Positions 3,825 to 42,724 of a stretch of 64,000 nucleotides of DNA are shown in pieces. Made by a program: the position numbers and the translations under genes. Each line of letters starts with the position of its first letter. Position 1 is the stretch's first letter. Source of the stretch: a virus; UHGV virus genome UHGV-1451962, one strand, 5' to 3'. The notes beneath the pieces were generated by a model. It was not told the origin of the DNA. It worked only from the letters and a program-made list of their open reading frames with translations, and did not search any database.

Positions 3825-3862
3825 GGCTCCCTTAGTTTTTCGCTAAGGGAGCCTTTTTTTTT
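3825..3862 (+). terminator. rho-independent terminator
   Basis: GGCTCCCTTAG...CTAAGGGAGCC stem followed by a T9 run. Confidence 0.65.
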
Positions 3863-3891: not shown

Positions 3892-3972
3892 AATTGGGAA
3901 ATCGTATGGGAATAAAATTTATATATGTATGGAAGGTAAAGGAAATAAAAAAATTTTTAGAAAGGAAAAATT

Positions 3973-4410: not shown

Positions 4411-4421
4411 GGAGGAAAATA

Positions 4422-5529: not shown

Positions 5530-5553
5530 TTAAATTTGGAGGATAACTAATTT

Positions 5554-5976
5554 ATGGAAATTACAGCCAATGCTGCTCAATCAGTTGCAGCCAATCAAAA
5601 TGTTCTTATGACTGATACAGTAGTTGGTGGAAGTTGTTCAATGGTTCATCGTAATGGTAGTGGATTAGTTACTTTGCGCGGCCTGGCTAGCACCCAGTGC
5701 CGCGCTCGTTTTAGAGTAACTTTTGGCGCTAATATAGCTGTTCCTACTGGTGGAACCGCAGGTGCTATTTCTTTAGCTATTGCTATTAACGGCGAACCTG
5801 TTGCTACAACAACCATGACAACTACTCCAGCCGCAGTCGATCAGTACAATAACGTGTTTAGTAGTATCTTTTTAGATGTTCCTAAAGGTTGTTGTTCTCA
5901 GATTAGTATAAAAAATATTAGCACTCAAACAGTTAGCGTTCAAAATGCTAATCTAATTGTTGAACGTGTTGCTTAA
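5554..5976 (+). CDS. hypothetical protein (possibly beta-sandwich C1q/TNF-like decoration or receptor-binding protein)
   Basis: 140 aa, Thr/Ala/Val-rich beta-strand-like composition with GCCSQ; assignment is compositional only. Confidence 0.5.
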   Translation: MEITANAAQSVAANQNVLMTDTVVGGSCSMVHRNGSGLVTLRGLASTQCRARFRVTFGANIAVPTGGTAGAISLAIAINGEPVATTTMTTTPAAVDQYNNVFSSIFLDVPKGCCSQISIKNISTQTVSVQNANLIVERVA

Positions 5977-5990
5977 TTTGGAGGTACAGT

Positions 5991-6545
5991 ATGGAAAGAC
6001 TAAAAAATATGAGAAATTGTTTAATGGCTTGTGTTGAAGGGGAATTGGCCCATCTTGATACTGTTGATGCTCATGAATTAGGTGAAGCAGTAGATATGAT
6101 AAAAGATTGTGAAGAAGCGATGTATTATCATACTATTAGAAAAGCTATGGAAGAGTCTGATTATAATATTAATAATAGAGATATGGATAAACATCATGGT
6201 AGAATGTATTATCCTACTCCTAGAATGTATTATACGATTGATCCTAAAATGAAGAAACATATAAAAGATGAGGATGATTATGTATATTATGATGATATGT
6301 ACATGATGCCTTATAAGCCTTTAGAAAAAATGCGGGATAAGCGTGAAGGTCGTAGTCCTATAAGCCGCAAAACTTATATGGAATCAAAAGAAATGCACAA
6401 AGATAAGCCCACTCAGCTAAAAGAGTTAGAACACTATATGCAGGAATTAGCTAGTGATATAGTGGAAATGATAGAAGGTGCATCTCCCGAAGAAAAACAA
6501 ATGATACAACAACGCATTAATTCTATTTCCGCTAAAATACAATAA
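5991..6545 (+). CDS. hypothetical protein
   Basis: 184-aa ORF with GGAGGT RBS, rich in Y/M/D/K; no recognised motif. Confidence 0.55.
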   Translation: MERLKNMRNCLMACVEGELAHLDTVDAHELGEAVDMIKDCEEAMYYHTIRKAMEESDYNINNRDMDKHHGRMYYPTPRMYYTIDPKMKKHIKDEDDYVYYDDMYMMPYKPLEKMRDKREGRSPISRKTYMESKEMHKDKPTQLKELEHYMQELASDIVEMIEGASPEEKQMIQQRINSISAKIQ

Positions 6546-6877
6546 TGTATACAGTAAATGTAAATGGTGAAACATGGACAATAGAATTTGTTTCTTCTTC
6601 TAATTATAATTTAATGAGAAGTGATGGAACTTATACTATTGGAGTTTGTGATGATGAAACTAAAACCATTTATATAGATAAAAATTTAAATAATAGTTAT
6701 TTGCAAAAAGTTTTGTGCCATGAGATAACCCATGCTGCAATGTTTAGCTATGATATAAATTTATCCCTTGAACAAGAAGAATTATTAGCTGATTTATTAG
6801 CAACATATGGAGAAGAAGTAGTACAAAAAGCAAATATATTATTTAAACGTATAAAAGAAAATAGGGGAAGCTATTAA
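6545..6877 (+). CDS. putative zinc metallopeptidase (HExxH, ImmA/IrrE-like)
   Basis: 110 aa with LCHEITHAAMF (HExxH) motif; start overlaps upstream stop. Confidence 0.5.
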   Translation: MYTVNVNGETWTIEFVSSSNYNLMRSDGTYTIGVCDDETKTIYIDKNLNNSYLQKVLCHEITHAAMFSYDINLSLEQEELLADLLATYGEEVVQKANILFKRIKENRGSY

Positions 6878-6897: not shown

Positions 6898-7308
6898 ACT
6901 TTCTATATCACGAATCGGCAATTCACAAACTCGTTCATAAAAATCCTGTCCTCGACCATTGCCTTTTAATCCTTCATGGTAAGTTTTCCACATAGCAGTA
7001 AGTGCAGAAAATTCATCAGACGTCAAATAACCTCTTTCTAAGTATTCTCGACAAAGATTTATTAGTCTTTCACTATAATCTTCTTTTAACGCTTCAAATT
7101 TCTTATTCTCTATATCAATCTGTTCTTGAAGAGGATTCAATTTTTCTTCTATTGTTTCATCTAATTTATTTTCATTTAATTTTTCAAATGCTTCTTTATA
7201 CTGCTGAAATTTTTTATCTAAATTTCTAAAATAAGCTAATAAACCAGCAGAAATCAAACCAAAAATAATTTCAAACCAATGTTCGACAAAGAAGGCGCCT
7301 GTTATCAT
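6889..7308 (-). CDS. membrane protein, unknown function
   Basis: Start moved to internal ATG (MITGAFF...) 12 nt after AAGGAGG; N-terminal TM helix then coiled-coil-like region. Confidence 0.5.
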   Translation of the reverse strand: MITGAFFVEHWFEIIFGLISAGLLAYFRNLDKKFQQYKEAFEKLNENKLDETIEEKLNPLQEQIDIENKKFEALKEDYSERLINLCREYLERGYLTSDEFSALTAMWKTYHEGLKGNGRGQDFYERVCELPIRDIESKK

Positions 7309-7381
7309 AAGATTTTTCAACCTCCTTAAATTGTTCATTACATTTAAAAATAGTTTGAAATTAATTAATATATTTTGTCCT

Positions 7382-7891
7382 TTAAGACCAATCAAATCCT
7401 CTATTTAAAGCATGATAACCAATACAAATTGCATCAGCTTCATCTTGCGTAGGTTTTATTTTGTATTTATTAATTACAAAAGCCTGCGCGTTTTTTTTCT
7501 GCTCATTTCTAATTTTCCCAGTTACACCGCAAGTTTTTTTCCAAGCAGAAGAAGAAACAACATCATATTTAATGTTTTCTTTTTCCAATAAACTTAATAA
7601 TGCTCCTTGTACATGGGCAAGTTTTTTATAAGTAACTACTCCAAAATCTTTCGCTTTTATCTTTTTGCCATTTGGTTCATATTCTTGTAGTTGTATATCT
7701 TCAATAATAACTTCTACATCCCCATTTAGAGTATCAATTATATTCTCTAACCAATCTCTTAATTTAGAAATTCTTAGCATATATTCTCCTTCTGGATGAA
7801 TATGACCATAAGTAATTAACTCTTGGCCTTTAAATACAGCATATCCAGTAATGGCTGTACTTTGATCTAAGGCCAAGAGAAATTTAGACAT
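7382..7891 (-). CDS. ruvC: RuvC-like Holliday junction resolvase
   Basis: LALDQSTAITGYAVF N-terminal motif and DEADAICIG acidic motif, 169 aa. Confidence 0.7.
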   Translation of the reverse strand: MSKFLLALDQSTAITGYAVFKGQELITYGHIHPEGEYMLRISKLRDWLENIIDTLNGDVEVIIEDIQLQEYEPNGKKIKAKDFGVVTYKKLAHVQGALLSLLEKENIKYDVVSSSAWKKTCGVTGKIRNEQKKNAQAFVINKYKIKPTQDEADAICIGYHALNRGFDWS

Positions 7892-8433
7892 TATCTACCA
7901 GTTGAACCGTATCCACCAATGCGTTCATTTTCACTTTTATCATCATCTGTTACAGAATAATTATGAATTACACCTTGGCCAATACGATCACCTTTTTTTA
8001 ATTCAATAGCAAAAGGACTTAAATTAATCATTTGAAAGAAAATTTCTCCATCATTTTCAGGATTACCTGCGTAGTCAGCATCTACAATACCCGGCGCATT
8101 GCCTTGAATCAACCAGTATTTAAGAGGAGTTGAGCTACGAACCGCCAACTGCAAATACTGATTAGGTTCCATATAACATTTTACACCAGTAGAAACAAGA
8201 GTAGGTTTAGCTTTCGTGGCTTTTGTAATCTTTTCCATCTGTTCTAAAGTAATAATATTATCATCAGAAACTTGAACAGAATTCTTCAAAAGATTCATTG
8301 TATGAGTTTCAAGTGGTGGAATTATAATATTTTCCGCAACATACATATCATAACCTGCGGAATACTTGGTACCTCTCTTCGGCATTTGAATATCTACATT
8401 TTCAAAACGCTTTACTTTTTCAAACTTAATCAA
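7891..8433 (-). CDS. dut: dUTP diphosphatase (trimeric dUTPase)
   Basis: All five dUTPase motifs visible: SAGYDMY, RSSTP, GIVDADYAG, RIGQ, GGYGSTGR. Confidence 0.85.
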   Translation of the reverse strand: MIKFEKVKRFENVDIQMPKRGTKYSAGYDMYVAENIIIPPLETHTMNLLKNSVQVSDDNIITLEQMEKITKATKAKPTLVSTGVKCYMEPNQYLQLAVRSSTPLKYWLIQGNAPGIVDADYAGNPENDGEIFFQMINLSPFAIELKKGDRIGQGVIHNYSVTDDDKSENERIGGYGSTGR

Positions 8434-8683
8434 TATCTACATCCTCCTTATAGCCATAAAAAGCATCAACATTACTTTCAGGATTCTTTTCATCATTAAA
8501 ACTTATTGTAGCTTTAACAACTTGATATTCTTCATCTGTTGCTTTAACGTATTTAGTAGTATAGCTAAAGCTAGTTAATTCACCATAATTATTTTTAGAA
8601 AGCTCCTCACGCAAAGCAAGAGCATCATAAACAGTAGGAACTCTATAAACATTAGTGACTTTAATTAAATTTTTATTAATCAT
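8426..8683 (-). CDS. hypothetical protein
   Basis: 85-aa ORF, operon-packed, overlapping start/stop with neighbours. Confidence 0.45.
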   Translation of the reverse strand: MINKNLIKVTNVYRVPTVYDALALREELSKNNYGELTSFSYTTKYVKATDEEYQVVKATISFNDEKNPESNVDAFYGYKEDVDID

Positions 8684-8685
8684 TT

Positions 8686-8946
8686 TTAAACATCCTCAAT
8701 CACAATATTTTTATTCATATATTCATTATTTGAATTAATATAATTTTTTACCTCTGAAGCAATAGCGTAAGGAGCATGAATTTTAACATTATAAATCTGC
8801 TCTGCTTCAACAATGCTCATAATTTGATCTGCCATATCTTTAGGGTTAGAACTCACTCTAAATTTTTTGCTAGTATTAGTAATAAAAACTTCAGAATTAA
8901 TTACGCCAGGATCATAAACAACAAAAATATCTTTTTTAATACTCAA
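8686..8946 (-). CDS. hypothetical protein
   Basis: 86-aa ORF in same operon. Confidence 0.45.
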   Translation of the reverse strand: MSIKKDIFVVYDPGVINSEVFITNTSKKFRVSSNPKDMADQIMSIVEAEQIYNVKIHAPYAIASEVKNYINSNNEYMNKNIVIEDV

Positions 8947-10717: not shown

Positions 10718-12973
10718 TTATAAATGTTTTACTCTCATAGAGACTTCTTGCTGTTTACCTAGATTAAATGCAGTTTTATAATCTCCTGTTAAATAACCGG
10801 TTACTCTTCTTAATTGTTGAATATGACTACTGCCACATTCAGGACAATTATCATTAAATTCATCACAATATCCGCACTCTAAACAAGTATCATTAGGTAC
10901 ATTAATTGCAAAATAAGGGATATCTTTATCCATAGCATAATTTACTATAATTTCTAATGCTTCTAAATTATTTTTTACTGTTGAATCTAATTCAATATAT
11001 GTAATACAACCAGCACTTGAATATCCTGTTAATTGAGATTCTATATCAATTTTTTCAAAAGGAGACATTTCCTTCCAAACAGGAACATGTATGCTATTTG
11101 TAAAGAAATCTTTATCTGAAACATTAGGAATAATACCATATTTTTCTTTAAATTTTTCCATTGCTGTATAAGCTAAATTTTCTGCGGGAGTGTAGTAAAC
11201 ACCAAAATTTAACTTATAATATTCTTTAAATTCTGCACAACGCTTTTTAAATAAAGATTCAATTTTTTTTGCTAATTCCATTCCTTCTGGAGTGGTGTGA
11301 TCCTGCCCAATTAGAATTTGAAGAGTTTCAGCAAGACCAATTTGACCCAAAGCTAAAGTCCCATGCTTCAGAGCACTACGGATACCTTCTTCTGGAATAT
11401 ATCCTGCCATAACATTATTTTCATACATGAATTTAGCTGACTCAGGAGATTGAGAACAAATCCATTCAAAGCGTTCAATTAACATATCTTTTGCTTCATT
11501 AATTTTTTGATCTAATTTATAAATAAATCTATCAATTAAAATTTGATTGCTATCGAAAGAATGATGATTTCTTACATCTTCCTCAAAATTAATTTTACAT
11601 TCCATCGCCAAAGTAGGCATAATAATAGTTACAGGACAAATATTTCCACGTCCATCTTTACGTTGTCCTAGGCCATTAATGTCCCATCCATTAGCCGTTC
11701 TACACCCCATCGTCGAGAAATATGTACACGGATCGTCTGGATTATAACCTTCATTTCCACTCCAATCAACATTTGCGTAATTAGGATATAATCTTTGAGC
11801 GGTTGATTTCAATGCTAATTGATATAAATCATAATTTGGATCTCCAGGTTTACGATTTATATTTTTCATCATTTGGAAAATTCCGCAAGGGAAAATACTT
11901 GTTTTATGTAATTTTCCAATTCCTTTTATTGAAACATCAAGAAGAGCTTTAGTTACTAAACGTCCTTCTGGCAGTACACAAGTGCCATAGTTAATTGATG
12001 TAAAAGGTAATTGATTCCCAGAGCGTGATTGTAGTGTATTAAGATTGTGGTACATTCCTTCAACAGCTTGATAGATTTCTTTTATTGTCATATCCATAGC
12101 ATATTTATATGGTCTATTTCCAATTCCTATCTGTGTTAAAAATTCAATATTATTTATAGAACAATTTTCTTTTAAAAGATTTATTTTCATTTCTGCGCAG
12201 CTACTATCAGACCAATCGCAAAAATATTTTAATCCATCACAATAATGTTTATAAAAACTTTTTCTTACATAAGGTACCATTGTCCAATCTAAGTGAGTTG
12301 CGCTCACGCCGCCAAACTGCTGCAAAGATTGTAGCTGAAAAATAACTGCGACAAGTTGAAAGGCGGTATTAACACTTTGAGCTGGTCTTACATCTGTTTG
12401 GCGTGTATTAAAACCATTAGCAAGCAAATCGTCAAAAGGAATAGATAAACAATTATGACTACCTACATAATAACTACCCAAATCATGAATATAAATTTCA
12501 TTATTTAAATGATTTTTTCTTGCCATAGGCGAAACAATATAATCCAAAGCTAATTGTTTTGTAACTATATCACTTGCTTCTCCAGTTCTTCCACCAAAAG
12601 AAGATTCATCAACATTTGCATTTTGATTTTGAATATTGGAAGCATCAAGTTTTTCTCTAATAGCATTAATAAAATCATTTTTCTTTTCTCTTGCTACTTC
12701 TTTTTTATATCTAAAACGAATATAAGCTCTAGCTACATCTCTTCGATAAGATTGCATTAAAAAATCTTCAACCCAATCTTGAATATCTTCAACGCCAATA
12801 CTACCATCAGGATAATGCTGCATTTTTTTTTCAATTTCATTTGCTATATCTTTTGCGGTATCATCCTCATATAATTGTCCATCTACTTCAATGAAAGCTT
12901 TATTAATTGCATTAATAATTTTATTTTTATTAAAAACCGCGATTGAACCATCGCGTTTAATTAAGTCAAACAT
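10718..12973 (-). CDS. nrdD: anaerobic ribonucleoside-triphosphate reductase
   Basis: 751 aa; C-terminal CxxC...CxxC zinc ribbon (CLECGYC...CPECG) and glycyl-radical motif RVTGYL. Confidence 0.85.
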   Translation of the reverse strand: MFDLIKRDGSIAVFNKNKIINAINKAFIEVDGQLYEDDTAKDIANEIEKKMQHYPDGSIGVEDIQDWVEDFLMQSYRRDVARAYIRFRYKKEVAREKKNDFINAIREKLDASNIQNQNANVDESSFGGRTGEASDIVTKQLALDYIVSPMARKNHLNNEIYIHDLGSYYVGSHNCLSIPFDDLLANGFNTRQTDVRPAQSVNTAFQLVAVIFQLQSLQQFGGVSATHLDWTMVPYVRKSFYKHYCDGLKYFCDWSDSSCAEMKINLLKENCSINNIEFLTQIGIGNRPYKYAMDMTIKEIYQAVEGMYHNLNTLQSRSGNQLPFTSINYGTCVLPEGRLVTKALLDVSIKGIGKLHKTSIFPCGIFQMMKNINRKPGDPNYDLYQLALKSTAQRLYPNYANVDWSGNEGYNPDDPCTYFSTMGCRTANGWDINGLGQRKDGRGNICPVTIIMPTLAMECKINFEEDVRNHHSFDSNQILIDRFIYKLDQKINEAKDMLIERFEWICSQSPESAKFMYENNVMAGYIPEEGIRSALKHGTLALGQIGLAETLQILIGQDHTTPEGMELAKKIESLFKKRCAEFKEYYKLNFGVYYTPAENLAYTAMEKFKEKYGIIPNVSDKDFFTNSIHVPVWKEMSPFEKIDIESQLTGYSSAGCITYIELDSTVKNNLEALEIIVNYAMDKDIPYFAINVPNDTCLECGYCDEFNDNCPECGSSHIQQLRRVTGYLTGDYKTAFNLGKQQEVSMRVKHL

Positions 12974-31131: not shown

Positions 31132-33012
31132 TTAATCAAAAGTAAAACCAAGCTCGGTAGCATTTTCATAAATATATTGTTTGCGGGGTTCTACTTTAAC
31201 TCCCATTAAAATTTCAAGTAATTCATCTGCTTTTTCTGCATCACTAATAGTAATTCTTTTATAGCGTTCTTGCTCAAAACAAACTTTCTGAAGATCACGT
31301 GCGTTTAACTCGCCCAAACCTTTCGCTCTCACTAGCTCATAAGTGCCTTGATGCTGAGTTTTCCACTCTTCAAGTTCTTCATCAGTATAAGCATAGTATT
31401 CATTATTCTTCTGACGAATAATGTACAAAGGAGTAACTGCTCTATAAAGTTTTCCTGCTTCGACTAAAGGCCGCATATAAGTAAAAAAGAATGTAGTTAA
31501 AAGTAATTCAATACTAGCTCCATCAGAATCTGCATCCGAAGTAATTACGATTTTATCAAATTGCATTTTATCTACATCAAAAGTTTTATCAAAACCTCCA
31601 CCAATTACTTTAATAATATCAGAAATTTCTTGATTAGCAAGAATTTTTTCAACAGATTGTTTTCTAGGGCTAATAGTTTTACCTTTTAACATATAAATAC
31701 AATCTGTTTTGGGATTCCGTGCTTCAACGGCAGATGATCCTGCGCTTAAACCCTCGACTAGCAGTAGATTACGCTGGCTTGGATTCTTATTTGTGCAATC
31801 AATAAATTTATTACTTAGGGCGATTTTGGCTTTAAGACCAGTTTCTTTTTTACCCTTATCCCTAACAGCTTCTCTAGCTTTTCGAGCTGCTTCTCTAGCT
31901 TTTCGAGCATTGATCGCCTTATCTGCGATTTTCTTTATTTCTTTTTCATTTGCTTCAAACCAATATTGTAATTCTTGTGCAATGATTCCTGCAAAAGGGT
32001 GCATATCAATTTTAACAATTCTACTTTTGGTCTGAGCGTCATAAGCTATACCAGGAGCAGTAATATTAAAAACTAAATATAATCCTTCTTGACAATCATC
32101 GCCAGATAAATTGCTATCCTTTTCTTTCAACCAAGCTTTATCTCTAAAAAACTTATTCATTTCTCTTGTTAGAATAGTTTTAATTTGAGTAATATGCGGG
32201 CCAGTATCAGTAAGTCCTGTATTAACATAAGGAACAATAGTAGAAGAATATTTATCAGTATAAGTTAATACTAAATTTAATTCATTCTTATTATCTTTAA
32301 AATCAATTTTAAGTCTATTTTTAATAATTTCGCTATTTTTATCTACAGTAGAATCAACCAAATCAGTTAATCCATTCTTAGAGAAAAAAGTTTTTTCATT
32401 TAAAGTGATAGTTAAACCTGGACATAAACAAACTAAAACTTCAAAAAGATTATTAATAATTTTTAAATCTACTTCTGGGTGAGTAAAAAATTCTTCACTT
32501 GCTTGCCAAGTAACAACAGTACCGGATTCTTTATCATTTTTTACTTTACCAGTTTTGCGGTTTTTGAAAATTCCTTCTTCAAAAGAAACTTCTTCAAAAT
32601 TTCCTTTTTGATAACTAAGTACCTTTGTCCAATGACTTAAAAATACAACTAGCTTACTGCCGATTCCGTTTAGACCTAACGCGGTACCTTCATAAACACC
32701 ATCTTCAGTATATTTACCAGAAGTGTTAAGCACACTAAAAGCAGCTTCAAGAATTGTTTTTCCGTCTTCTCTAGTGGAATTAATTAAAAAACCTTGCCCA
32801 TTATCTTTAACTGTGATTACATTATTATCTGAAATAGTTACATTAATTTCAGTGCAATGACCTGCTTTAAACTCGTCAACTGCATTAGAAACAATCTCAA
32901 TCAATAGCTGAGTTGAATATTCAGTAGAACCAACATATACTCCAGGTCTAAGTCTTGTAAATTCTAGTGGAGTAAGACTTTGAATTGAATCTTTATTATA
33001 TAAATTATTCAC
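31132..33012 (-). CDS. type II DNA topoisomerase, B (ATPase/TOPRIM) subunit
   Basis: 626 aa; TOPRIM motifs LLLVEGLSAGSSA and VITSDADSDGASI. Confidence 0.8.
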   Translation of the reverse strand: MNNLYNKDSIQSLTPLEFTRLRPGVYVGSTEYSTQLLIEIVSNAVDEFKAGHCTEINVTISDNNVITVKDNGQGFLINSTREDGKTILEAAFSVLNTSGKYTEDGVYEGTALGLNGIGSKLVVFLSHWTKVLSYQKGNFEEVSFEEGIFKNRKTGKVKNDKESGTVVTWQASEEFFTHPEVDLKIINNLFEVLVCLCPGLTITLNEKTFFSKNGLTDLVDSTVDKNSEIIKNRLKIDFKDNKNELNLVLTYTDKYSSTIVPYVNTGLTDTGPHITQIKTILTREMNKFFRDKAWLKEKDSNLSGDDCQEGLYLVFNITAPGIAYDAQTKSRIVKIDMHPFAGIIAQELQYWFEANEKEIKKIADKAINARKAREAARKAREAVRDKGKKETGLKAKIALSNKFIDCTNKNPSQRNLLLVEGLSAGSSAVEARNPKTDCIYMLKGKTISPRKQSVEKILANQEISDIIKVIGGGFDKTFDVDKMQFDKIVITSDADSDGASIELLLTTFFFTYMRPLVEAGKLYRAVTPLYIIRQKNNEYYAYTDEELEEWKTQHQGTYELVRAKGLGELNARDLQKVCFEQERYKRITISDAEKADELLEILMGVKVEPRKQYIYENATELGFTFD

Positions 33013-34002: not shown

Positions 34003-34783
34003 ATAATCTCTTCATTATAGTGACGCCTTCTAGTCTGGTTAAAAACTTATTAGGCATTAATTTGCCAGTTTCGTCACCTTTAATTAGTCCCATAGAAACT
34101 GCCCAATTTAATTCATCTTTGCCCCAATCAGCATTTTGTTTAGCTAATTGAACTAAATAATTATTCATCATTTCATTAAATTTTTCTTGAGTCATGTCTT
34201 CATCCTCCTCTTGTTTAATTGTAGGTTTATTATTATTATTTGTTTTAGGTTTTTCAATTATAAAATAATATTTTACTTGTTGTTTGAAAAGACTATAATT
34301 ACCTCTAGTGCGTGCGGTTTTTGTGCTGTTAGGGTCATTAATATAAATAGTGTTTCCTTGAATATTCCACACTAAAATGAAATGACCACTACTTGTCCAT
34401 AATCCTTTGCCCATACAAGCTATAACTAAATTACCTTTATCAATTTCAGCTTTTGCTAAATTATGATATTTACTAGAACTATTACCATAAATATTTGCAC
34501 CATTCAGCATATAGGCTGTTAAACCGTATCGTGCAGCAGCAGGTTTAAAATATCCATAATAAGTTCCTTGGTGAGGAGCTTTATAACCATGCGCTAAAGC
34601 CCAGGCACATTCAGTTTTTGGAGTAACTTTTTTATCTGCCCATGTAGCTAAAACCATAGACATTGCGGTGGGACCGCAGCCAGAAGCGCCGATTGTAGTT
34701 GATTCACCTTTTGCTGAATAGCTAATATTTTTCCATCTTGCGTCTGTTTGTAAATAAGATACAGGCTGTGTATTCATATACAT
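33986..34783 (-). CDS. endolysin: papain-like (C39-type) cysteine peptidase with C-terminal SLH-like cell-wall-binding domain
   Basis: Q...GASGCGPTAMSMVLA Cys motif; C-terminal NWAVSMGLIKGD...LMPNKFLTRLEGVTIMKRL resembles SLH repeat. Confidence 0.5.
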   Translation of the reverse strand: MYMNTQPVSYLQTDARWKNISYSAKGESTTIGASGCGPTAMSMVLATWADKKVTPKTECAWALAHGYKAPHQGTYYGYFKPAAARYGLTAYMLNGANIYGNSSSKYHNLAKAEIDKGNLVIACMGKGLWTSSGHFILVWNIQGNTIYINDPNSTKTARTRGNYSLFKQQVKYYFIIEKPKTNNNNKPTIKQEEDEDMTQEKFNEMMNNYLVQLAKQNADWGKDELNWAVSMGLIKGDETGKLMPNKFLTRLEGVTIMKRLYDKLR

Positions 34784-34807
34784 TCTTCTTTCTTTTGTTT
34801 TAAAAAA

Positions 34808-34832
34808 AGAGCTAGGATAAAATCCTAGCTCT
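34808..34832 (-). terminator. rho-independent terminator
   Basis: AGAGCTAGGA-TAAAA-TCCTAGCTCT stem with T-run on minus strand downstream of PhoH exon 2. Confidence 0.5.
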
Positions 34833-34851
34833 TTGATTATTATTATTATTA

Positions 34852-35280
34852 TTAAATTAATTCTGCGAGTTCTGCTATTTTAGATCTATGGATATTATTT
34901 AAAGTTACTTCTCCATAAATATCAGAACCTCTAAAAATTTTAGACATTCTTCTCATGCCATTGTTATTACCAGAATAAGCTAATGAGTCAACTTGCGTTT
35001 TAGCATCACCATCAATAATACAAATACAATCTTCACCAATACGTTGAAGAGCTAATTTAATTAAAGTTCTGTCTAAATTTTGTGCTTCTGTTATATAAAT
35101 ACCTGCGTTCATTCCGCTAGTATCATAACCTCTAATATCGCTAAAAGGCAATAAAACTAATTTATCTTCTTCCATCATACGAAGAACACCTTCTTTACCG
35201 CCCAATTTGGCGGAAAGCATATTACCAATTTGTGAGTCAAGTAATTTATCGTCTTTTGTACCTGGGTAAACATTAAACAT
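34852..35280 (-). CDS. phoH: PhoH2-like ATPase, 3' exon (C-terminal part)
   Basis: PhoH C-terminal motifs LPFSDIRGYD, ITEAQNL, IIDGDAKTQVDS; continues the P-loop domain that ends at 36547; exact splice junction not determined. Confidence 0.55.
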   Translation of the reverse strand: MFNVYPGTKDDKLLDSQIGNMLSAKLGGKEGVLRMMEEDKLVLLPFSDIRGYDTSGMNAGIYITEAQNLDRTLIKLALQRIGEDCICIIDGDAKTQVDSLAYSGNNNGMRRMSKIFRGSDIYGEVTLNNIHRSKIAELAELI

Positions 35281-36546
35281 TATAGCTTTCGCTATAAACC
35301 TGACTATATCTTATTTCAAACTATTTTTTAAACTAATATATTTATCATATTTTCTTTTTAAAAATCTTGGATTATTATCATAAAGAGTATTTAAAATATT
35401 TAATACTTGTATTCTACCTCTCCATTGTGTATGCCACGCGGTAGTATAAAAATTTTTGTTTTTTTTATCTGATTGTATTAGAAGGTTTATTATATTTTGA
35501 AAATCTTCAACTTCTGTCTCACAATAAGCTGTATAACTTAATGTTACATCTGTGCTAAAATTTTTACTATATGAAAGACCGCCATCACCATCAAATAAAC
35601 CTAAAGCATAAGCTGATAAATATTCTTTAGGGATTTTTTCATAAGGAATATGTGTTATTTTATAAGTTTTATTTGGCACTATATTATATTTTGCTAAGTC
35701 ATTATAAATTTGTTCATCTACAAATTCAACTGAACAACAAGTGCTATTTGGACGAATATCATAGATAATTTTACTATCTATTTGAATATCATTTTTAAAT
35801 TTTTCAAGAAGTTCTATATCTTGTTCTTGAATTTGTAATCTAATTCGCCCAGTTTTTCGATAATGGTCTACACTTCCATCTGTAAATAAAAATCCTAGCC
35901 AATATGCTTTAATAGGAGAGTCGATAATTGAAAAATAATCACTTTTAATTCTCCTATTAATTTTATTTGTATTTGTAACTTTGATATTTAATTCTTTTAA
36001 CCTTTTCTTCGTTGTTTCAACATCCAAATTACAATATTTAGCAATTTCTTTAAGAAAAGCTCCTTCTTTAATCATTTTTTTAATAGTAATAATTTGTTCA
36101 TCAGATAAATTTTTCTTTTTTCTTCCACCTCTTATTACAACATTATTATCTGTAAGAAGTTTTGTTAAATTACGTCTATTATAAGAAGGATATTTTAAAA
36201 GTAATTTAGTTATTGACTGACCTTCTAAATACTCTTGTACAATTTGTTTTTCCATAAACTATCTCCTTTATTTTAATATTATATATTATTTTTATTAAAG
36301 ATAGTTTTTCTTTGTTTGTCCAAAATTTTTCAGTTTGAAATCCATGCGCTTCGGAATTTTACTTCCTACTCTACTCCCTTACTATAGTTTCGATAGTCGA
36401 TGAGCCTTCCTCTATTCGAGGCTTGGTTGCTGATTGTCCAATCTATATTATTTTTAAACGTTCACGCTTAGATTTATTTCATTCTTACGTTGTAGTTAAT
36501 ATAGCTCTAAGGATGTTCCAGCAGTTCACATGGTTTTACTTGAGCC
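35281..36546 (-). mobile_element. group I intron (ORF-containing) interrupting PhoH2-like gene
   Basis: About 1.27 kb separates the two PhoH halves; 290-nt GC-elevated non-coding segment (36256-36546) with stem-loops, plus a free-standing LAGLIDADG ORF; GNRA hairpin TATAGC-GAAA-GCTATA just before exon 2. Confidence 0.55.
35311..36255 (-). CDS. LAGLIDADG homing endonuclease (intron-encoded)
   Basis: Two LAGLIDADG motifs (AYWLGFLFTDGS, AYALGLFDGDGG); own RBS AAGGAGA; 314 aa. Confidence 0.8.
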   Translation of the reverse strand: MEKQIVQEYLEGQSITKLLLKYPSYNRRNLTKLLTDNNVVIRGGRKKKNLSDEQIITIKKMIKEGAFLKEIAKYCNLDVETTKKRLKELNIKVTNTNKINRRIKSDYFSIIDSPIKAYWLGFLFTDGSVDHYRKTGRIRLQIQEQDIELLEKFKNDIQIDSKIIYDIRPNSTCCSVEFVDEQIYNDLAKYNIVPNKTYKITHIPYEKIPKEYLSAYALGLFDGDGGLSYSKNFSTDVTLSYTAYCETEVEDFQNIINLLIQSDKKNKNFYTTAWHTQWRGRIQVLNILNTLYDNNPRFLKRKYDKYISLKNSLK

Positions 36547-37416
36547 TTACCCTATTTTAATTAACCCAAGTCTTGCGGAATTAATAGTTGCCACTGTATT
36601 ACAAAAGATTATAATTTTATCTATTCTATTTTTTTCTAACATATACATTAAAAAAGCTAGAGAAATGTAAGATTTTCCTACTCCTGCTGGGCCTTGTAAC
36701 AAAGTAATTTTATTATTAGCTAAACTATCAAAAGCACATTTTTGATATATGTCTCCTTGATATGGTTGTACTTTTCCAAACCAGGTAGAATCAAAAGTAG
36801 GAAATTTTAAGTAACGATAAGTTTCTCCTGACCAAACCCGCACATCTATAAGTTCATCAAAATTATCAGGATTTTTTAAAAGTAGATATTCTCCTTTTTT
36901 AAGATTAAAATGATTATAGTTAGGATTTTCATAAAATTTAGAAATTAATTCTTCACTAGCAGTAATTTCTGCAATTCCACTATAAGTATCTAAATCTTCC
37001 TCAATAGAAGAAACATTTTCTTTGGGAAACAAACATAAAGCAATATGTTTTAAACTTAAATCATTAGTTATAAATTCTAAACATTTATTTGTTTCAAACT
37101 CATTCCAAGCATCAGACAAAATTCTAGCATCATCATTAATATCAAAATTCATTTTATCTAAAATGTATTCATAATTTATTTGATGAATTTTAACAGAATA
37201 ATTATTTGGATATTTTTCAAATAAATGAAGCAAAAGTCTTGCGGAATATTTTATATCAGAATCTTTATTTGCCGCAGTTTTAATTCTTTCTAATTCTTTT
37301 AAAGTAATAGAAGAAATGATAAATTTCTCATCATCTTCAAAAGCTGATTCTCCGGCTAATAAAAGACTACAAGTATCGTAGAATTTAATAATAATTTCCA
37401 CTCTCCTATTGTTCAA
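36547..37416 (-). CDS. phoH: PhoH2-like protein, 5' exon (PIN-like N-terminal domain plus Walker A of PhoH domain)
   Basis: N-terminal PIN-like region (YDTCSLLL); C-terminal LLQGPAGVGKSYISLAF P-loop; ORF ends ~6 codons past the point where PhoH homology stops. Confidence 0.55.
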   Translation of the reverse strand: MNNRRVEIIIKFYDTCSLLLAGESAFEDDEKFIISSITLKELERIKTAANKDSDIKYSARLLLHLFEKYPNNYSVKIHQINYEYILDKMNFDINDDARILSDAWNEFETNKCLEFITNDLSLKHIALCLFPKENVSSIEEDLDTYSGIAEITASEELISKFYENPNYNHFNLKKGEYLLLKNPDNFDELIDVRVWSGETYRYLKFPTFDSTWFGKVQPYQGDIYQKCAFDSLANNKITLLQGPAGVGKSYISLAFLMYMLEKNRIDKIIIFCNTVATINSARLGLIKIG

Positions 37417-37469
37417 ATAAGATAAAATAAATTATCTTTCTTTATTAGATTAAAAAATAAATAAAATAA

Positions 37470-37907
37470 TTAATTATTTATGGCCTTTCTTTGTCTTTTT
37501 AGAGAAGTAATTACTTTACTTTGAGCTTTTAAATATGTATTTAATTCTTTTTCTTCTGTTTTAATATAATCCAAATACTTATTAATTTGCTGTTTTAGTC
37601 TTACTATTTCTTTAATGACAATGATATACTCACATTTTTTATTTTCTCTTAAAATATCGTTATAAAATCTTTTTACAGCATTGTATTCAATATTAGTTTT
37701 TTCTTTAATATCTTTTAAAGCATTAATAATTGCTCTTTTGTGAGCTATTGTTTGACCTACTTTGGTTGAGAAAAAGTCCATATCATCAGAATGACAAGTA
37801 GCAGTCCCAGTATAGTATTTTCGTTCATAATAAACTATTGCCTCAATTGAATTATTTGTGTAATTAAATTCTACGGGTAAAAGATTAATTGTTTTTCTTA
37901 GACTCAT
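37470..37907 (-). CDS. hypothetical protein
   Basis: 145-aa ORF with AGGAGAATTTTA RBS; coiled-coil-like C-terminal half. Confidence 0.45.
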   Translation of the reverse strand: MSLRKTINLLPVEFNYTNNSIEAIVYYERKYYTGTATCHSDDMDFFSTKVGQTIAHKRAIINALKDIKEKTNIEYNAVKRFYNDILRENKKCEYIIVIKEIVRLKQQINKYLDYIKTEEKELNTYLKAQSKVITSLKRQRKAINN

Positions 37908-38078: not shown

Positions 38079-38621
38079 TTACTTAATTCTATTTTTAATA
38101 TCCTTAATAATCAAATCAATAGAAACAGGGAAATTATTATGAGCATCTAATTCTACATGATAAATAAGACCTTTATCCCAATCCGCAAAAGCGTCCTGAC
38201 TATGAGAGTGTCCGCACAAACTAATCATTCTTGCTTTAAGAGGTTTCTCATTATCAAAATTACTACAAAGTGTAGGATAATGGCTTAAATAAAAATGATA
38301 TTTACCATATCTTAAAAATTGACCTTCAGTTACTTTAATAATATTATTACAATTATTATATAAATTTACACGAACTTCACTATCATGGTTTCCTCTAACT
38401 ACATAAATTTGTCCTTTTAACTGTTTAATTTTTTCAATTCCTGCTTCATTATCATTTAGCATCAAATCACCAAGCACATAAACTTTATCATTAGGACGAA
38501 TAATTTTATTCCAATTTTCAATAATTGCGTTATCATGTTCTTGGATATTCTTAAATCCTCTTGGTTCATAAAGAAAGGGCTTATTATGGCCTAGATGAAG
38601 ATCACTGGTAAACCAAACCAT
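38079..38621 (-). CDS. calcineurin-like metallophosphoesterase
   Basis: Motifs DLHLGH, GDLMLN, GNHD, HSH; 180 aa. Confidence 0.75.
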   Translation of the reverse strand: MVWFTSDLHLGHNKPFLYEPRGFKNIQEHDNAIIENWNKIIRPNDKVYVLGDLMLNDNEAGIEKIKQLKGQIYVVRGNHDSEVRVNLYNNCNNIIKVTEGQFLRYGKYHFYLSHYPTLCSNFDNEKPLKARMISLCGHSHSQDAFADWDKGLIYHVELDAHNNFPVSIDLIIKDIKNRIK

Positions 38622-38623
38622 TA

Positions 38624-39136
38624 TTACACCTCCTCAGGATAATGCAAAATAGTATTCACATTATGAAAACCCCAATCAAAATATTTATTCATTTCATCCT
38701 TAGAAGGAATAGAAGATTTAAAATAAAAATTTTTTATTGCTTCTTCTGGGACTTTAGCGAAACCTTCTCTTTCAGAATTTCTTCTTAAAGCAACATCTAA
38801 AAGAATAGGAAAATAATCAAAAGTAAGATTAATATTATTCTTATCTTTCAGATCAAAAAAATTGTTTAAAAGTTTAGCTCTTGAAGAAATATCAATATGA
38901 GTCGCATCTATATAAATATTTTCTACATTTTCTTTAATCGCGATTTTAATATTTGCAATCATTTCTTTATATACCTGTTTTTCTTTACTAAAATAATTTT
39001 TTCCAGGATTTTCGTCTACATAATTCTTGCGGATTTCATCTCTTGAGATAATCTTACCATTCTGCTGTTTTGCCCAAGTAGATTTGCCGGAAGCAGGAAT
39101 ACCACAAAGAATATGCAAATTAATCATAAATACCAA
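38624..39136 (-). CDS. P-loop kinase, polynucleotide-kinase-like (AAA_33-type)
   Basis: Walker A CGIPASGKST at N-terminus, 170 aa; directly upstream of the metallophosphoesterase. Confidence 0.5.
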   Translation of the reverse strand: MVFMINLHILCGIPASGKSTWAKQQNGKIISRDEIRKNYVDENPGKNYFSKEKQVYKEMIANIKIAIKENVENIYIDATHIDISSRAKLLNNFFDLKDKNNINLTFDYFPILLDVALRRNSEREGFAKVPEEAIKNFYFKSSIPSKDEMNKYFDWGFHNVNTILHYPEEV

Positions 39137-39395
39137 ACTCCTTTACATAAGAAATACTATTTTGTGCTTCTTCTTTAAAAAGTCCTTCTTCAAAATCTAG
39201 TTTAAAATTATATGCTTCTTCATCATTTCTACATTCTACCATATTAACAGTTTCTTTACAATGGGGACAATACATAACTTTCTTATGCCCAACTTCTCTA
39301 AAACGTCCTCTTAATCGAGGAATTGACATTGACTTCTTTCCGCAATTCATACAATAAAAATCGTGCATTTCATATTTTCTAGGGTCTTTAGACAT
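39120..39395 (-). CDS. zinc-ribbon protein
   Basis: CMNCGKK...CPHCKE pattern; start at ATG after GAGGAG RBS. Confidence 0.45.
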   Translation of the reverse strand: MSKDPRKYEMHDFYCMNCGKKSMSIPRLRGRFREVGHKKVMYCPHCKETVNMVECRNDEEAYNFKLDFEEGLFKEEAQNSISYVKEFGIYD

Positions 39396-39567
39396 TTTTA
39401 TCAAACTCCTCAATTTGTTTTTTTACAATTTCAAAATATTCTTTAAGCTCTTTATTTTCTTTACTTTTGTTTATTCTTTTAATTTCTGTTTTTTTCCAAA
39501 ATTTATATTTTAATGTTTCTATATAATTTGTAAAAATAATATGTATATTGTTATCTTTTAAATATTT

Positions 39568-39795
39568 TTATGTATAAAGAGGTTTTAAAAAAACAACTGA
39601 ATGTTCCTGTAAATTATAAATTTCTGGATCTAAATTATAAAAAGAAACAAAATCTTTTAATTTTAAAATTATATATTTATGTGTTTTTGTAATTTTGCGG
39701 TCTGTTCTATAATTATCATATTGACATATAATATAAAATCCTATGAAAGGTAACGCTAATCCTAATATTAATTTTGCCATAATTATTTCCTCCAT
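39568..39795 (-). CDS. small membrane protein
   Basis: 75 aa with one hydrophobic helix (LILGLALPFIGFYIIC). Confidence 0.4.
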   Translation of the reverse strand: MEEIIMAKLILGLALPFIGFYIICQYDNYRTDRKITKTHKYIILKLKDFVSFYNLDPEIYNLQEHSVVFLKPLYT

Positions 39796-40508
39796 TAAAT
39801 AGAAAAGATATGTTCATCAAAAGTATTTAAATCAAAAAGAATAATTTGTTTACTCCAATGAGTATCTAAATCAAGATTAACCTTTTGATTATTATTATAC
39901 CAACAAGCTCCACCTTCATATTTAGGAGGATTGCGAAATTCTCCTATATCTTCTATCATTAGAGGAATTGGGGTATGGCCATGAACAATTAATTCATTTG
40001 GATTAATTAAACATCTAAATTTATAATGTAATCTATTCCAAAGAAAATCAAATTCATCACCAGAAATATTATTAGGAGAAAAACCTGCATGACTTAAATG
40101 AATTTTAATTCCATTTTTATTAGTGTATTGTTCATAAACTGGAAGTTTATTAATTACATTTAAATACTCAATAGCATTTTTTTCTTTAGACCAATCTAAT
40201 AAAGTAGATAAACCTCCATTGTTCATATGAAGATAAATATCATCTCCATATAAACATTTTTCATTTTTTAGAAATTCTCTTCCAGAATTTACTAACATTT
40301 GTTCATGGTTTCCTTTAAGAAGGATAAATCTATCATCTTTTAAAATTTCTTTAAGGATTTTCCAACCTTCTGTCCCTCTGTCAATTACATCACCCAACAC
40401 AAATACTTTATCTTCTGCTTGAATGAAATTTTTAATCTGCTTAAACAAATTTGAATTGCCATGAAGGTCAGTAAAACAATAAACTTTACCCTTATTCATA
40501 AACATCAA
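39795..40508 (-). CDS. metallophosphoesterase (PPP/ApaH-like phosphatase)
   Basis: Motifs DLHGN, GDVIDRG, GNHE; 237 aa. Confidence 0.7.
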   Translation of the reverse strand: MMFMNKGKVYCFTDLHGNSNLFKQIKNFIQAEDKVFVLGDVIDRGTEGWKILKEILKDDRFILLKGNHEQMLVNSGREFLKNEKCLYGDDIYLHMNNGGLSTLLDWSKEKNAIEYLNVINKLPVYEQYTNKNGIKIHLSHAGFSPNNISGDEFDFLWNRLHYKFRCLINPNELIVHGHTPIPLMIEDIGEFRNPPKYEGGACWYNNNQKVNLDLDTHWSKQIILFDLNTFDEHIFSI

Positions 40509-40524
40509 TTCCTTTCTTAATTTC

Positions 40525-40560
40525 TATATATATTATATAATATTTTTTTAAAAAAATAAA
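40525..40560 (-). promoter_or_regulatory. promoter-leader cassette (TATAAT -10 plus conserved AGAAA(G/T)TAAG..AGG leader)
   Basis: Minus-strand TATAAT at 40532-40537, about 25 nt upstream of start codon; same cassette recurs at many minus-strand gene starts. Confidence 0.4.
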
Positions 40561-40562
40561 TT

Positions 40563-40591
40563 AAGGGCAAAAGATCTTAATCTTTGCCCTT
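40563..40591 (-). terminator. rho-independent terminator
   Basis: AAGGGCAAA...TTTGCCCTT stem downstream of gene 40599-40817. Confidence 0.55.
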
Positions 40592-40598
40592 AATTCTT

Positions 40599-40817
40599 TT
40601 AATCTTCAATTTCTTCTATTTCACCATTAATAATTCTTTTACAATATTCTTCTTCACAAATATCATCTAAATTATGAATTGTATCAAAAGAATAATATAA
40701 ATTAATATAATCTTCTTTCGTTGCGTAAGGATTTGCAAACATAAAATTGTCAAAATCCTTATCTACCATAGCACGAATATATTCCATAAAATCTTTTTTA
40801 TCAATTACAATTTTCAA
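40599..40817 (-). CDS. hypothetical acidic protein
   Basis: 72-aa ORF. Confidence 0.4.
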   Translation of the reverse strand: MKIVIDKKDFMEYIRAMVDKDFDNFMFANPYATKEDYINLYYSFDTIHNLDDICEEEYCKRIINGEIEEIED

Positions 40818-40994
40818 AGAATAAAGCCTCCGAGCCGCAAGATTTCAAAAATAAACCAAAATACACAAAAAAGAAACCAGAAAATACGCATTTTCTTTTC
40901 TTGACATCTATTGTGTAAAATTGTTTCGCATAGCAAAACTCCATTAATACACATTAAAATGCCCCAAATAATCGTCATTATTAAATGAAACATA

Positions 40995-41444
40995 TTAGGT
41001 CATTACCTCCGATACAATTTGATTAACAATTTTCATATCTGCCTTACCCTTAAAAACAGGAGCAAAAAGTTTCATTGCTCTACCTTTGTTTGCCTTAGTT
41101 GCATCAAGTTCATTTTCGGCAAGCATTTTTTCAATTTGAGTTTTAATTGTTTCTTTATCGGTAAGAAGCTGTGGTGCATACTGCTTTACAACAGCCATAT
41201 CAAGATTATATTGAATAAATAACTCTTTGCGGTTTTCTGGACAAGTATCAATCATTTCTTGAATCATCTTTTGATACTTAATTAAAGTATTATTAACAAG
41301 CTCTTCGGTAATTTCAATTCTGCCTTTTGGCGTAATTGCTGCTTTTTGTACTTCACCAATCATATTGGAAAGTACATTCTTCTTTTGAGTATCACCATTC
41401 TTCAAAGCCTGCATCATATCATTGTGCATAATTTCTAAAGTCAT
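40995..41444 (-). CDS. GatB/YqeY-domain protein
   Basis: 149 aa; colinear with bacterial YqeY proteins (N-terminal MTLEIMHNDMMQALKNGD..KKNVLSNMIGEVQK, C-terminal KGKADMKIVNQIVSEVM). Confidence 0.65.
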   Translation of the reverse strand: MTLEIMHNDMMQALKNGDTQKKNVLSNMIGEVQKAAITPKGRIEITEELVNNTLIKYQKMIQEMIDTCPENRKELFIQYNLDMAVVKQYAPQLLTDKETIKTQIEKMLAENELDATKANKGRAMKLFAPVFKGKADMKIVNQIVSEVMT

Positions 41445-41446
41445 AT

Positions 41447-42724
41447 TTAAACCTCCTGTGCTTCTTCCATATCGGGCTGGGTTTCAGTATCTTTAACTAG
41501 ACCTTCAAGAACTTTAAATTCCCAGGTTTTTTGTTTTAATGCAGTAAAAGTACGTCTATTAGCGATTCTAACCACTACACCTTCTTTAACATGAGTTAAA
41601 CCAATTGGGTCAACAATATCTTCAAAATATTTGTCAATTTTAGCGAGCAAGTCATCAATAGTAGTAAACTCAAAATCCTCAATGATAGGAACACGATTAA
41701 AACCATATTCATTGCACCAAGTAGTAATTTCCTCTGGAGAATATTCATATTCACCATTATGAGAAGTAATTCTATAAATCCACATTGCAGAATGACCAGG
41801 AGTACAACCATAAGAAAAAGTAGTATATTTACCAAACTTTTTCATAAATTTCTTGTCATTGATTTTACTATTATCTACAATTGGCATAATAGTTTCATTT
41901 TCTTTTGCTCCATACCAACCAACTACTTCATAAAAAACCTCCATACCTTCATTAAGATAAGGTTTCAAAGCTTCATGGTGACTAAATCTAAATTTGTCAT
42001 TACCATAATAACCTGCTCCATCAGTGGTAACAACAGTTCTACGAGTACCTAAAACATACTGCAACTTTCTCTTAGGTTTCATGTGAAATAGCTTTCTAAA
42101 CCAAGACATAGGATATTCTGCCCAAGTATATGCACTACGTTGGCTAGTACCATGCATTTTAAGGGTTAGATTAATTTTATCTCCAGGTCTAAAGATTCCA
42201 AGATTATAAGCTAATTGGGCAGTATTAATATGCATGGCAAAATCAGGATACTTAATTCCAGCTGCTTTACGACCTTTATAAGAAGTTTTAGGAGTAGTGC
42301 GAGGAGTAGCCGAAGGTTTAGGAATATATTTATAACAAAATAGCTTATTATTAATTTCAGTGACTTGATCGCCATCTTTCCAATTTTGCTCACCAAAATG
42401 CTCAACAATAGTAGAATAAGAAATAACAATACCAGAAGATTCATTACCTCTTAGCTTAATTGCTCTAATATGAGCATTATTTTCCAAATAACCACCTTGT
42501 GCGGTACCATCTAAATTCTTGCGGAAAAGCTTAAACTCATCACCAAACCAACGCTCAATAGCTCCATCAGTAGGAAGATAAAGAACTAATTCATCTTCCT
42601 TCATATCAGGGCCTACAATAACTCCTTCTCTAAAACAATCTGCTAAATAGAGTCTATCAGAATTAGGGTCTTTTCTTACATTTTCAATTTTAGTTACTAA
42701 ACCATAGTACGCCATAAATGTCAA
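41447..42724 (-). CDS. RNA ligase-like nucleotidyltransferase (Rnl2/Rnl5-like with N-terminal extension)
   Basis: Candidate motif I KMHGTS (KxHG, as in T4 Rnl2 KIHG), downstream FYEVVGWYG and LKQK motifs; 425 aa. Confidence 0.45.
   Translation of the reverse strand: MTFMAYYGLVTKIENVRKDPNSDRLYLADCFREGVIVGPDMKEDELVLYLPTDGAIERWFGDEFKLFRKNLDGTAQGGYLENNAHIRAIKLRGNESSGIVISYSTIVEHFGEQNWKDGDQVTEINNKLFCYKYIPKPSATPRTTPKTSYKGRKAAGIKYPDFAMHINTAQLAYNLGIFRPGDKINLTLKMHGTSQRSAYTWAEYPMSWFRKLFHMKPKRKLQYVLGTRRTVVTTDGAGYYGNDKFRFSHHEALKPYLNEGMEVFYEVVGWYGAKENETIMPIVDNSKINDKKFMKKFGKYTTFSYGCTPGHSAMWIYRITSHNGEYEYSPEEITTWCNEYGFNRVPIIEDFEFTTIDDLLAKIDKYFEDIVDPIGLTHVKEGVVVRIANRRTFTALKQKTWEFKVLEGLVKDTETQPDMEEAQEV

Follow-up and report, generated by a model that had tools for sequence, protein, structure and literature searches.

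The phoH2 gene of the virus genome UHGV-1451962, of which we analyzed a stretch of 64,000 nucleotides (nt; hereafter the window), is interrupted by a 1,293-nt insertion at 36563..35271 (all features of the locus lie on the minus strand). Judging from its sequence, this insertion is very probably a mobile group I intron, possibly IA2-like as in other phages, carrying a gene for a putative LAGLIDADG homing endonuclease (HEG), that homed into a conserved phoH2 codon of a gut phage. The first-pass annotation, made from the sequence alone, had proposed that a phoH2-like gene is split here by such an intron. Both parts of this proposal held, as the insertion is precise relative to intron-less alleles (contigs L001-L004) and can be removed in frame, and as its identification as a group I intron with a LAGLIDADG HEG is supported by splice-site rules, an Rfam match of the 5′ core, homology, and covariation.

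Exon 1 (36564..37416) encodes a PIN domain followed by the N-terminal portion of the PhoH ATPase with the Walker A motif GPAGVGKS, and exon 2 (34852..35270) encodes the remainder of the ATPase domain. In a list of open reading frames (ORFs), they appear as a 5′ ORF of 289 amino acids (aa; 37416..36547), with Pfam matches of exon 1 to PIN_4 (24.6 bits) and to positions 9-67 of the PhoH profile (35.1 bits), and a 142-aa 3′ ORF (35280..34852), which matches positions 92-196 of the same profile (42.3 bits) and is thus, as had been suggested, the rest of PhoH. The 5′ ORF had been thought to stop a few residues past Walker A; exon 1 in fact extends ~35 residues beyond this motif, and the ORF then adds 5 intron codons before a TAA. 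The spliced protein shows a single PhoH match of 88.8 bits (cutoff 27; profile positions 9-196), versus 35 and 42 bits for the halves, and a PIN_4 match of 23.6 bits (cutoff 21.9) N-terminal to this PhoH-type P-loop ATPase. It aligns over its full length to phrog_2765 (E=1.5e-71), its homologues bear the name 'predicted ribonuclease YlaK', and a search of 5.8 billion protein clusters retrieved thousands of uninterrupted PhoH2/YlaK homologues, including P0001 (418 aa, 97% identical). The spliced PhoH2 measures 418 or 423 aa depending on the start codon, the position of which is uncertain: gene callers place it at GTG 37401, TTG 37416 gives the longest ORF, and relatives have a 284-aa gene called. 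On the minus strand of 37380..37416, AGGAG stands just 1 nt upstream of the GTG, and the TTG has no Shine-Dalgarno sequence.

The insertion site is a conserved codon in the LG-F/Y-YPG motif, between Walker A and Walker B. Excising 36563..35271 preserves the frame and yields ...NSARLG-F-YPGTKDDK... within one continuous PhoH domain; when both halves were aligned to intact PhoH2 proteins, a check proposed with the first-pass annotation, this junction was gapless in 9 of 9 homologues. At the nucleotide level, the spliced sequence is collinear with the intron-less alleles, and the contig that encodes P0001 (L001, 133 kb) is syntenic with the window, its blastn alignment running to 36565 and restarting at 35270. 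The comparison with the intron-less allele permits two registers, one base apart. We chose the one shown here because it alone gives an exon 1 with a final U and an intron with a final G, the alternative register ending the intron in U. The junction predicted from the sequence is then ...CUUGGGU/uaauuaaa...uuuaaug/UUUACCC... (slashes mark the splice sites), with an intron that begins UAAUUAAAAU and ends UUUAAUG, its terminal G being at 35271. The expected spliced junction reads AGACUUGGGU/UUUACCCAGG, and the exon-exon junction model is AGACTTGGGT/TTTACCCAGG.

These ends are those that a guide sequence at the start of the intron would select. The internal guide sequence GGGUAAG-GCUCAAG (36552..36539) was read from the sequence; its 3′ half, GCUCAAG, pairs with the last 7 nt of exon 1, CUUGGGU (36570..36564), to form a P1 of 7 base pairs (bp) with a U·G pair at the cleavage site, and its 5′ half, GGGUAAG, pairs over 7 bp with UUUACCC at the beginning of exon 2 (35270-35264) to form P10, the guide strand being contiguous with the P1 strand. 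The exon 1 frame terminates within the guide sequence, at a TAA (36549..36547). The guide sequence is identical in the orthologous introns of two divergent IMG/VR phages (L109 and L218, described below), in both of which the U·G rule for P1 also holds.

The remaining non-coding sequence folds as a group I ribozyme, of which the 5′ core (36333..36533) was delineated from a partial match to Rfam Intron_gpI, minimum free energy (MFE) folds, homology, and covariation. P3 (36533-36527) pairs with P3′ (36348-36342) and P4 (36523-36518) with 36433-36428, an extended P5/P5a-c lying between the P4 strands and P6 (36426-36405) following them. The 5′ strand of P7, GACUAU (36398-36393), is complementary to AUAGUC (35307-35302), which would give the P7 of a P3/P7 pseudoknot; together with J8/7, this 3′ strand reads AAGAUAUAGUC (35312-35302) and equals the Rfam consensus. 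A 43-nt insertion between P7 and P3′ lies at the position of P7.1/P7.2 and contains P7.2 (GGAA/UUCC, 36366-36353). P8 consists of 9 bp between AUUUCAAAC (36341-36333) and GUUUGAAAU (35321-35313), the latter overlapping the last HEG codons and the stop. As the two strands pair across the ORF, the endonuclease gene therefore sits in the P8 loop. A P9 hairpin with a GNRA loop, UUAUAGC-GAAA-GCUAUAA (35297..35280), comes next and is followed by 9 nt ending in the terminal G; it corresponds to the GNRA-capped hairpin that had been noticed directly before exon 2.

MFE folding of the ORF-deleted intron yielded P3, P4, the extended P5, P6, P8, and P9. It also paired GACUAU with a nearby UAUAGU, which we rejected, since P7 as assigned agrees with the 3′ partner AUAGUC, with the J8/7 consensus, and with the homologues. 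A second GATATAGTC at 23977-23969 was likewise discarded as a chance match, since it lies in ordinary coding sequence without other core elements. When the 5′ core was searched alone, Intron_gpI (RF00028) matched 36342-36533 over model positions 50-157 (25 bits, E=1.2e-4), using the same P3, P4, P5, and P6 pairs as those assigned by hand. Folding against group I models, the second check that had been proposed, hence turned out in favor of the intron: the core can be folded, its 5′ part matches the family model, and homology and covariation agree. The description of the non-coding segment as 290 nt of elevated GC content applies to its first 231 nt (36.4%, against 30.2% for the window) and fails for the 77 nt preceding the ORF (15.6%).

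Homologues of this core are numerous. A megablast search of the region against phage genomes returned no match, while a sensitive blastn search recovered, from 427 phage records, segments with 74-79% identity to intron nt 27-176. The matches that we inspected lie within split or interrupted genes with an endonuclease ORF shortly downstream. Two are annotated as joined coding sequences, namely the recombinase of phage 812 (I-812II) and the major capsid protein of Bacillus phage SP-15, and in a third, in Enterococcus phage EF1, the ORF is annotated 'HNH homing endonuclease # Phage intron'. Scanning IMG/VR with a core pattern recovered at least 120 loci, so that the ribozyme family is very common in phages. 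Of the 100 members used in the anchor tests described below, 13 carry inserts of 0.5-1.3 kb in the P8 loop.

Covariation was counted for the window structure on a MAFFT alignment (A4) of 10 family members with their ORFs excised. Standard pairs were formed in 89.7% of the cells, compared with 70.7 ± 1.3% after shuffling and 38-41% when the partner strand was slid. Changes on both sides were found in 40 of the 61 modelled pairs, for a covariation score of 0.51 versus 0.18, and none of 500 shuffles reached the observed value. By helix, both-side changes affected 6 of 7 pairs in P3, 2 of 3 in P5, 4 of 6 in P6, 4 of 4 in P7.2, 9 of 9 in P8, and 7 of 7 in P9. MAFFT misaligned the P7.1-P8 segment in some rows, which lowers these counts and does not raise them. 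Two further MAFFT alignments, which included short-P5 introns or Listeria phage LPJP1 (A2 and A3), were misaligned; because of this, no covariance model was built from them, and A4 and anchor-based tests were used instead. The LPJP1 sequence (L008) and L087 had a wrong P3′ assignment and were left out. In the anchor tests, run on 100 family members, P8 averaged 5.6 contiguous bp versus 3.1 ± 0.1 with permuted partners, and perfect 7/7 P3 partners were present in 67% of the members versus 15% with swapped strands.

The P8 loop contains a 945-nt ORF (36255..35311) encoding 314 aa, which by its sequence is a two-motif LAGLIDADG homing endonuclease of putative activity. Motif 1, WLGFLFTDG, occupies aa 119-127 (35875-35901), with D126 as putative catalytic residue, and motif 2, ALGLFDGDG, aa 217-225 (35581-35607), with D224 in the same putative role; both are kept in the L109 orthologue. 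The second half-domain matches LAGLIDADG_3 (PF14528; 30.2 bits, cutoff 22.5), and the first, taken alone, gives a weak LAGLIDADG match (16.9 bits, E=0.008). The N-terminal part (~aa 1-100) carries helix-turn-helix (HTH) modules, with weak matches to HTH_38 and HTH_7. The protein falls in phrog_4645, 'endonuclease' (E=2e-49), and is 26% identical to the Kayvirus intron-encoded endonucleases across 96% of its length. The two LAGLIDADG motifs had been seen correctly in the first reading; the ORF had also been called free-standing, which does not agree with its place inside P8.

The AUG of the HEG is preceded by a good Shine-Dalgarno sequence, AAAGGAG, lying within an 11-bp hairpin (36256..36307) that pairs AAACUAUCUUU (36307-36297) with GGAGAUAGUUU (36266-36256) and ends just before the AUG. 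Its MFE is -12.1 kcal/mol (z = -4.6), and none of 200 shuffles folds as well. An equivalent 14-bp hairpin of different sequence, with compensatory changes, is found in L109 (about 1953-2008; z = -2.3). This conservation of structure suggests that the hairpin may restrain translation of the HEG. In L218, a similar Shine-Dalgarno hairpin was recognized by eye. A promoter scan returned 20 sites versus 20.3 expected, i.e. chance level, and no late promoter was detectable by it.

Some T-even phage genes have been reported to be split by mobile endonuclease genes. In a similar manner, the HEG could be a free-standing gene that divides phoH2 into two polypeptides, separately translated and reassembling afterwards, a possibility to which the calling of both halves as ORFs and the in-frame ATG at 35280 of the 3′ ORF lend some color. 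However, this ATG lies in the P9 stem, 10 nt ahead of the true junction, without a Shine-Dalgarno sequence, and exon 2 has no credible ribosome-binding site. The split would moreover fall inside the P-loop NTPase fold, ~350 nt of covarying group I non-coding RNA would be left unexplained, and the insertion ends obey the U/G splice-site rules, with the spliced frame being under strong purifying selection (see below). We thus hold a free-standing endonuclease gene to be highly improbable.

The intron is polymorphic among related phages. The HEG was found in at least 12 contigs, every one of which has a split phoH2, and the uninterrupted allele in at least 4 contigs; the P0001 protein cluster accordingly mixes members of 416-418 aa and 284-289 aa. 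The window itself is identical to a 137-kb human-gut scaffold (L009). As it derives from a metagenome assembly, the interruption might be an assembly chimera or a sequencing artefact, an explanation with next to no probability that is refuted by the identical architecture of these 12 or more contigs, which come from independent samples and assemblers (ENA, Logan), and by the same arrangement in the two divergent IMG/VR lineages.

The distribution of differences around the insertion site reads as a record of homing. Strains with exons differing by 2-10% have introns of 99.4-100% identity, and between the window and L010 the synonymous divergence (pS) is 0.022 in the HEG versus 0.26 in the exons, i.e. 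~12-fold lower in the intron. Between -13 and +10 of the insertion site, no difference is found among the intron-containing alleles. The intron-less alleles differ from them at -11, -9, -5, -2, and +5, and these exon markers accompany the intron. In two contigs (L010 and L015), the intron is present together with distal markers of the intron-less type, as would be expected if homing were accompanied by a short co-conversion tract; this tract reaches no farther than about 13 nt on the upstream side and 10 nt on the downstream side. The differences at -5 and -2 are synonymous and correspond to the bases completing P1 (2 of its 7 exon positions). The exon bases needed for P1 were imported together with the intron.

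Beyond these strains, an orthologous intron occupies the same codon in two divergent IMG/VR phages (L109, 50.6 kb, and L218, 150 kb). Their endonucleases are 67% and 76% identical to that of the window, versus 38-39% for the protein encoded by PhoH2 exon 1, which fits lateral spread to a conserved target. Compared with the window, both introns show compensatory changes in P5a, P7.2, P8, and P9. Bacterial genomes were also scanned for the guide sequence together with P3; there were 0 matches and thus no clue to the host.

The interrupted gene has remained under constraint. The spliced frame is open in 8 of 8 intron-containing alleles, and its ratio of nonsynonymous to synonymous polymorphism (pN/pS) is ~0.04, the same as that measured against intron-less alleles. 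This value indicates that the interrupted phoH2 is still under selection and implies that the exons would be ligated.

Several observations weigh against a functional mobile intron. Splicing of the phoH2 intron is predicted from the sequence, and the exact spliced protein is absent from a collection of 15 billion proteins. The 9 of 9 uninterrupted members of the P0001 cluster that were read carry the intron-less marker Lys, and these therefore provide no evidence of a spliced cDNA or of precise intron loss. A search of the PDB with the HEG sequence returned only HTH matches, for the N-terminus, and no LAGLIDADG structure. Intron_gpI gave no match at the gathering threshold in the window, nor at E<=10 in the 2.9 kb from 34700 to 37600, and the 25 bits of the 5′ core stay below the family threshold of 50 bits. 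P2 is absent and P7.1 is vestigial, so that peripheral stabilization may be weaker than in Twort-type introns. Within the covariation analysis, P4 and P7 are invariant in A4, because both were fixed by the search anchors, and add no covariation support; the structure was moreover derived from the window row, which favors it in the slide control.

The low Rfam score is likely due to the 1-kb ORF (945 nt) in P8, because the 5′ core matches when searched alone and because annotated homologues bearing an ORF score low too (38-39 bits, against 52-101 bits for ORF-less relatives). Of the extra pairings P7.1 and P7.2 that mark subgroup IA2, P7.1 is a real hairpin in L109, L218, phage 812, and SP-15 and vestigial in the window, and P7.2 covaries in 4 of 4 pairs.

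The subthreshold Rfam score, the missing P2, and the reduced P7.1 could also be read as signs of a decayed intron, which no longer splices or needs an absent protein cofactor, leaving phoH2 as a pseudogene or with a truncated PIN + Walker A product only. This is very unlikely in view of the pN/pS of ~0.04, equal to the value against intron-less alleles, with no allele carrying a frameshift or a stop. In addition, the core helices are all intact and compensated among the three phoH2-intron lineages, both P1 and P10 are perfect, and the intron is accompanied by the exon bases that form P1.

For the functional group I intron that we favor, we infer the following course of events. The transcribed intron would fold into the P3-P9 core, and the guide sequence would pair with the end of exon 1 to form P1. 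An external guanosine would then attack just past the U that is paired with G, the guide sequence would position exon 2 through P10, and the 3′-OH of exon 1 would attack beyond the terminal G, giving a ligated mRNA for the full 418/423-aa PhoH2. The in-frame stop 5 codons into the intron would keep ribosomes off the core, and the 314-aa LAGLIDADG enzyme would be translated from its own ribosome-binding site, normally held in the hairpin. In a mixed infection, the enzyme would cut an intron-less phoH2 near the insertion site, and repair off the intron-containing genome would copy the intron and a few flanking exon bases.

The closest comparison is the intron in the RecA-like recombinase gene of Staphylococcus Kayviruses (I-812II in phage 812, EF136585; I-MsaII in fRuSau02), with a core ~76% identical over nt 27-176. 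Phage 812 shows the layout of the window, with an insertion at the place of P7.1/P7.2 and the ORF in the loop of P8; its 9-bp P8, GAAUUGCCU/AGGCAAUUC, is fully compensated relative to that of the window, and its enzyme is a homologous LAGLIDADG protein of similar length, only distantly related to the one described here (26% over 96%). It differs in its host gene, a recombinase and not phoH2, and in its guide sequence and exon context; it also has a P2 hairpin and a real P7.1, its P5 insertion is larger, and its 3′ tail is longer. Mass spectrometry has shown the recombinase of the Kayvirus fRuSau02 to be present at full length (PMC5618024).

Introns with 79% and 74% identity to the window core are found in Bacillus phage SP-15 (in the major capsid protein gene, KT624200) and Enterococcus phage EF1 (MF001358), respectively; in both phages, the ORF occupies the P8 loop, and P3 and P8 show compensatory changes. 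Both differ from the window in their host genes and in their endonucleases, which are unrelated (endonuclease-I-like in SP-15, HNH in EF1), indicating that the ribozyme family and the endonuclease genes have been combined independently.

The element order of the window is also that of the three introns of Twort orf142, the second of which is the crystallised IA2 ribozyme. These self-splicing introns (I1-I3, AF132670) share with the window a J3/4 AAU, P4-P6, CAACGACUA (P7), an insertion at the place of P7.1/P7.2, P3′, a short P8, GAUAUAGUC, a GNRA-type P9 hairpin, and a terminal G. The Twort introns lack an ORF, contain P2, and reach 64-101 bits with Rfam, whereas the window has a 1-kb P8 loop, an extended P5, no P2, and 25 bits for the 5′ core only.

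The T4 td intron is a phage group I intron whose endonuclease ORF is looped out of the ribozyme and which has an early in-frame stop after the 5′ splice site; the ribosome-binding site of its endonuclease, I-TevI, can be held in a hairpin. I-TevI belongs to the GIY-YIG enzymes and is encoded in P6a, and the host gene is thymidylate synthase. The window has instead a LAGLIDADG enzyme, an ORF in P8, and phoH2 as host gene.

Three records matching the core have features of their own. Bacillus phage vB_BpuM-BpSp (KT895374, H31) has 7 separate sites matching the window core, the best being in a B-family DNA polymerase. EF1 (L007) contains three consecutive group I introns at 1680-1962, 2028-2252, and 2519-3290 (Rfam 52, 88, and 39 bits), the third bearing the HNH endonuclease gene, and the record does not annotate the host gene as split. 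In Listeria phage LPJP1 (MZ422438), positions 3823-4466 contain group II domains (D1-D4-5, 94 bits; Intron_gpII, 56 bits), directly downstream of a member of the group I family in the same region.

Apart from the host gene, every part presented above is already well described in phages: the ribozyme type, the ORF looped from a peripheral helix, the LAGLIDADG enzyme, a conserved motif as homing site, and a stop codon soon after the 5′ splice site. The current understanding of group I introns is unchanged, and what the window adds is the location. No report of an intron in phoH was found in the searchable literature, a 2025 survey of Bastillevirinae introns does not mention PhoH, and the best 80 PhoH2 loci in IMG/VR are all uninterrupted, in line with the earlier remark that phoH is a less usual site. 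The phoH2 gene thereby joins the phage genes colonized by group I introns, at a highly conserved motif.

For annotation, the ORFs of 284/289, 314, and 142 aa become one joined phoH2 coding sequence and an intron-encoded endonuclease. Gene callers and Rfam at its default threshold both miss the split phoH2, and as the ribozyme family occurs in at least 120 IMG/VR contigs, such mis-annotations are probably common. The gut-metagenome strains with and without the intron form a natural record of homing, and the HEG is a candidate for a new LAGLIDADG specificity, the likely target of which can be read from the intron-less alleles.

The intron might also be more than a passenger, which we regard as rather unlikely. 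As a weapon in the competition among co-circulating strains of this abundant gut phage, its endonuclease could cut the intron-less phoH2 of a co-infecting phage and drag linked markers into the progeny. As a switch on PhoH2, the efficiency of splicing could determine how much full-length PhoH2 is made relative to a truncated PIN + Walker A protein translated from unspliced RNA, and the intron would then control an RNA-processing gene in a cluster resembling an RNA repair cluster.

The surroundings of phoH2 look like an RNA repair or processing cluster. Upstream (38079..42724, minus strand) are genes for two metallophosphatases, an AAA_33 kinase, an RNA ligase, and a YqeY-like protein, and downstream is an RNase H gene, both by synteny with L001. 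An intrinsic-terminator-like hairpin with a 13-bp stem, found by a terminator scan, and a U-run follow the phoH2 stop (34800..34841, minus strand), the T-run being visible on the minus strand. The rest of the window is a replication module with DnaB, AAA_24, a RecJ-like nuclease, an SF1 helicase, DNA ligase, and gyrase. Fifteen tRNA genes lie at 49.6-50.9 kb and 58.1-60.3 kb of the window, and an anaerobic ribonucleotide reductase, NrdD, with an ATP-cone (10718..12973, minus strand; 481 bits), is consistent with an anaerobic gut host.

Finally, gyrB, downstream of phoH2, varies among these phages. It is intact in the window (626 aa, 31132..33012) and measures 565 aa in L010 and L012; in two sister contigs, a gyrB of 427 aa is followed by a GIY-YIG ORF (L011, about 7236-8945; L013, about 5143-6857). 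The gyrB gene may thus be a second polymorphic insertion site for endonuclease genes or introns in this phage group.

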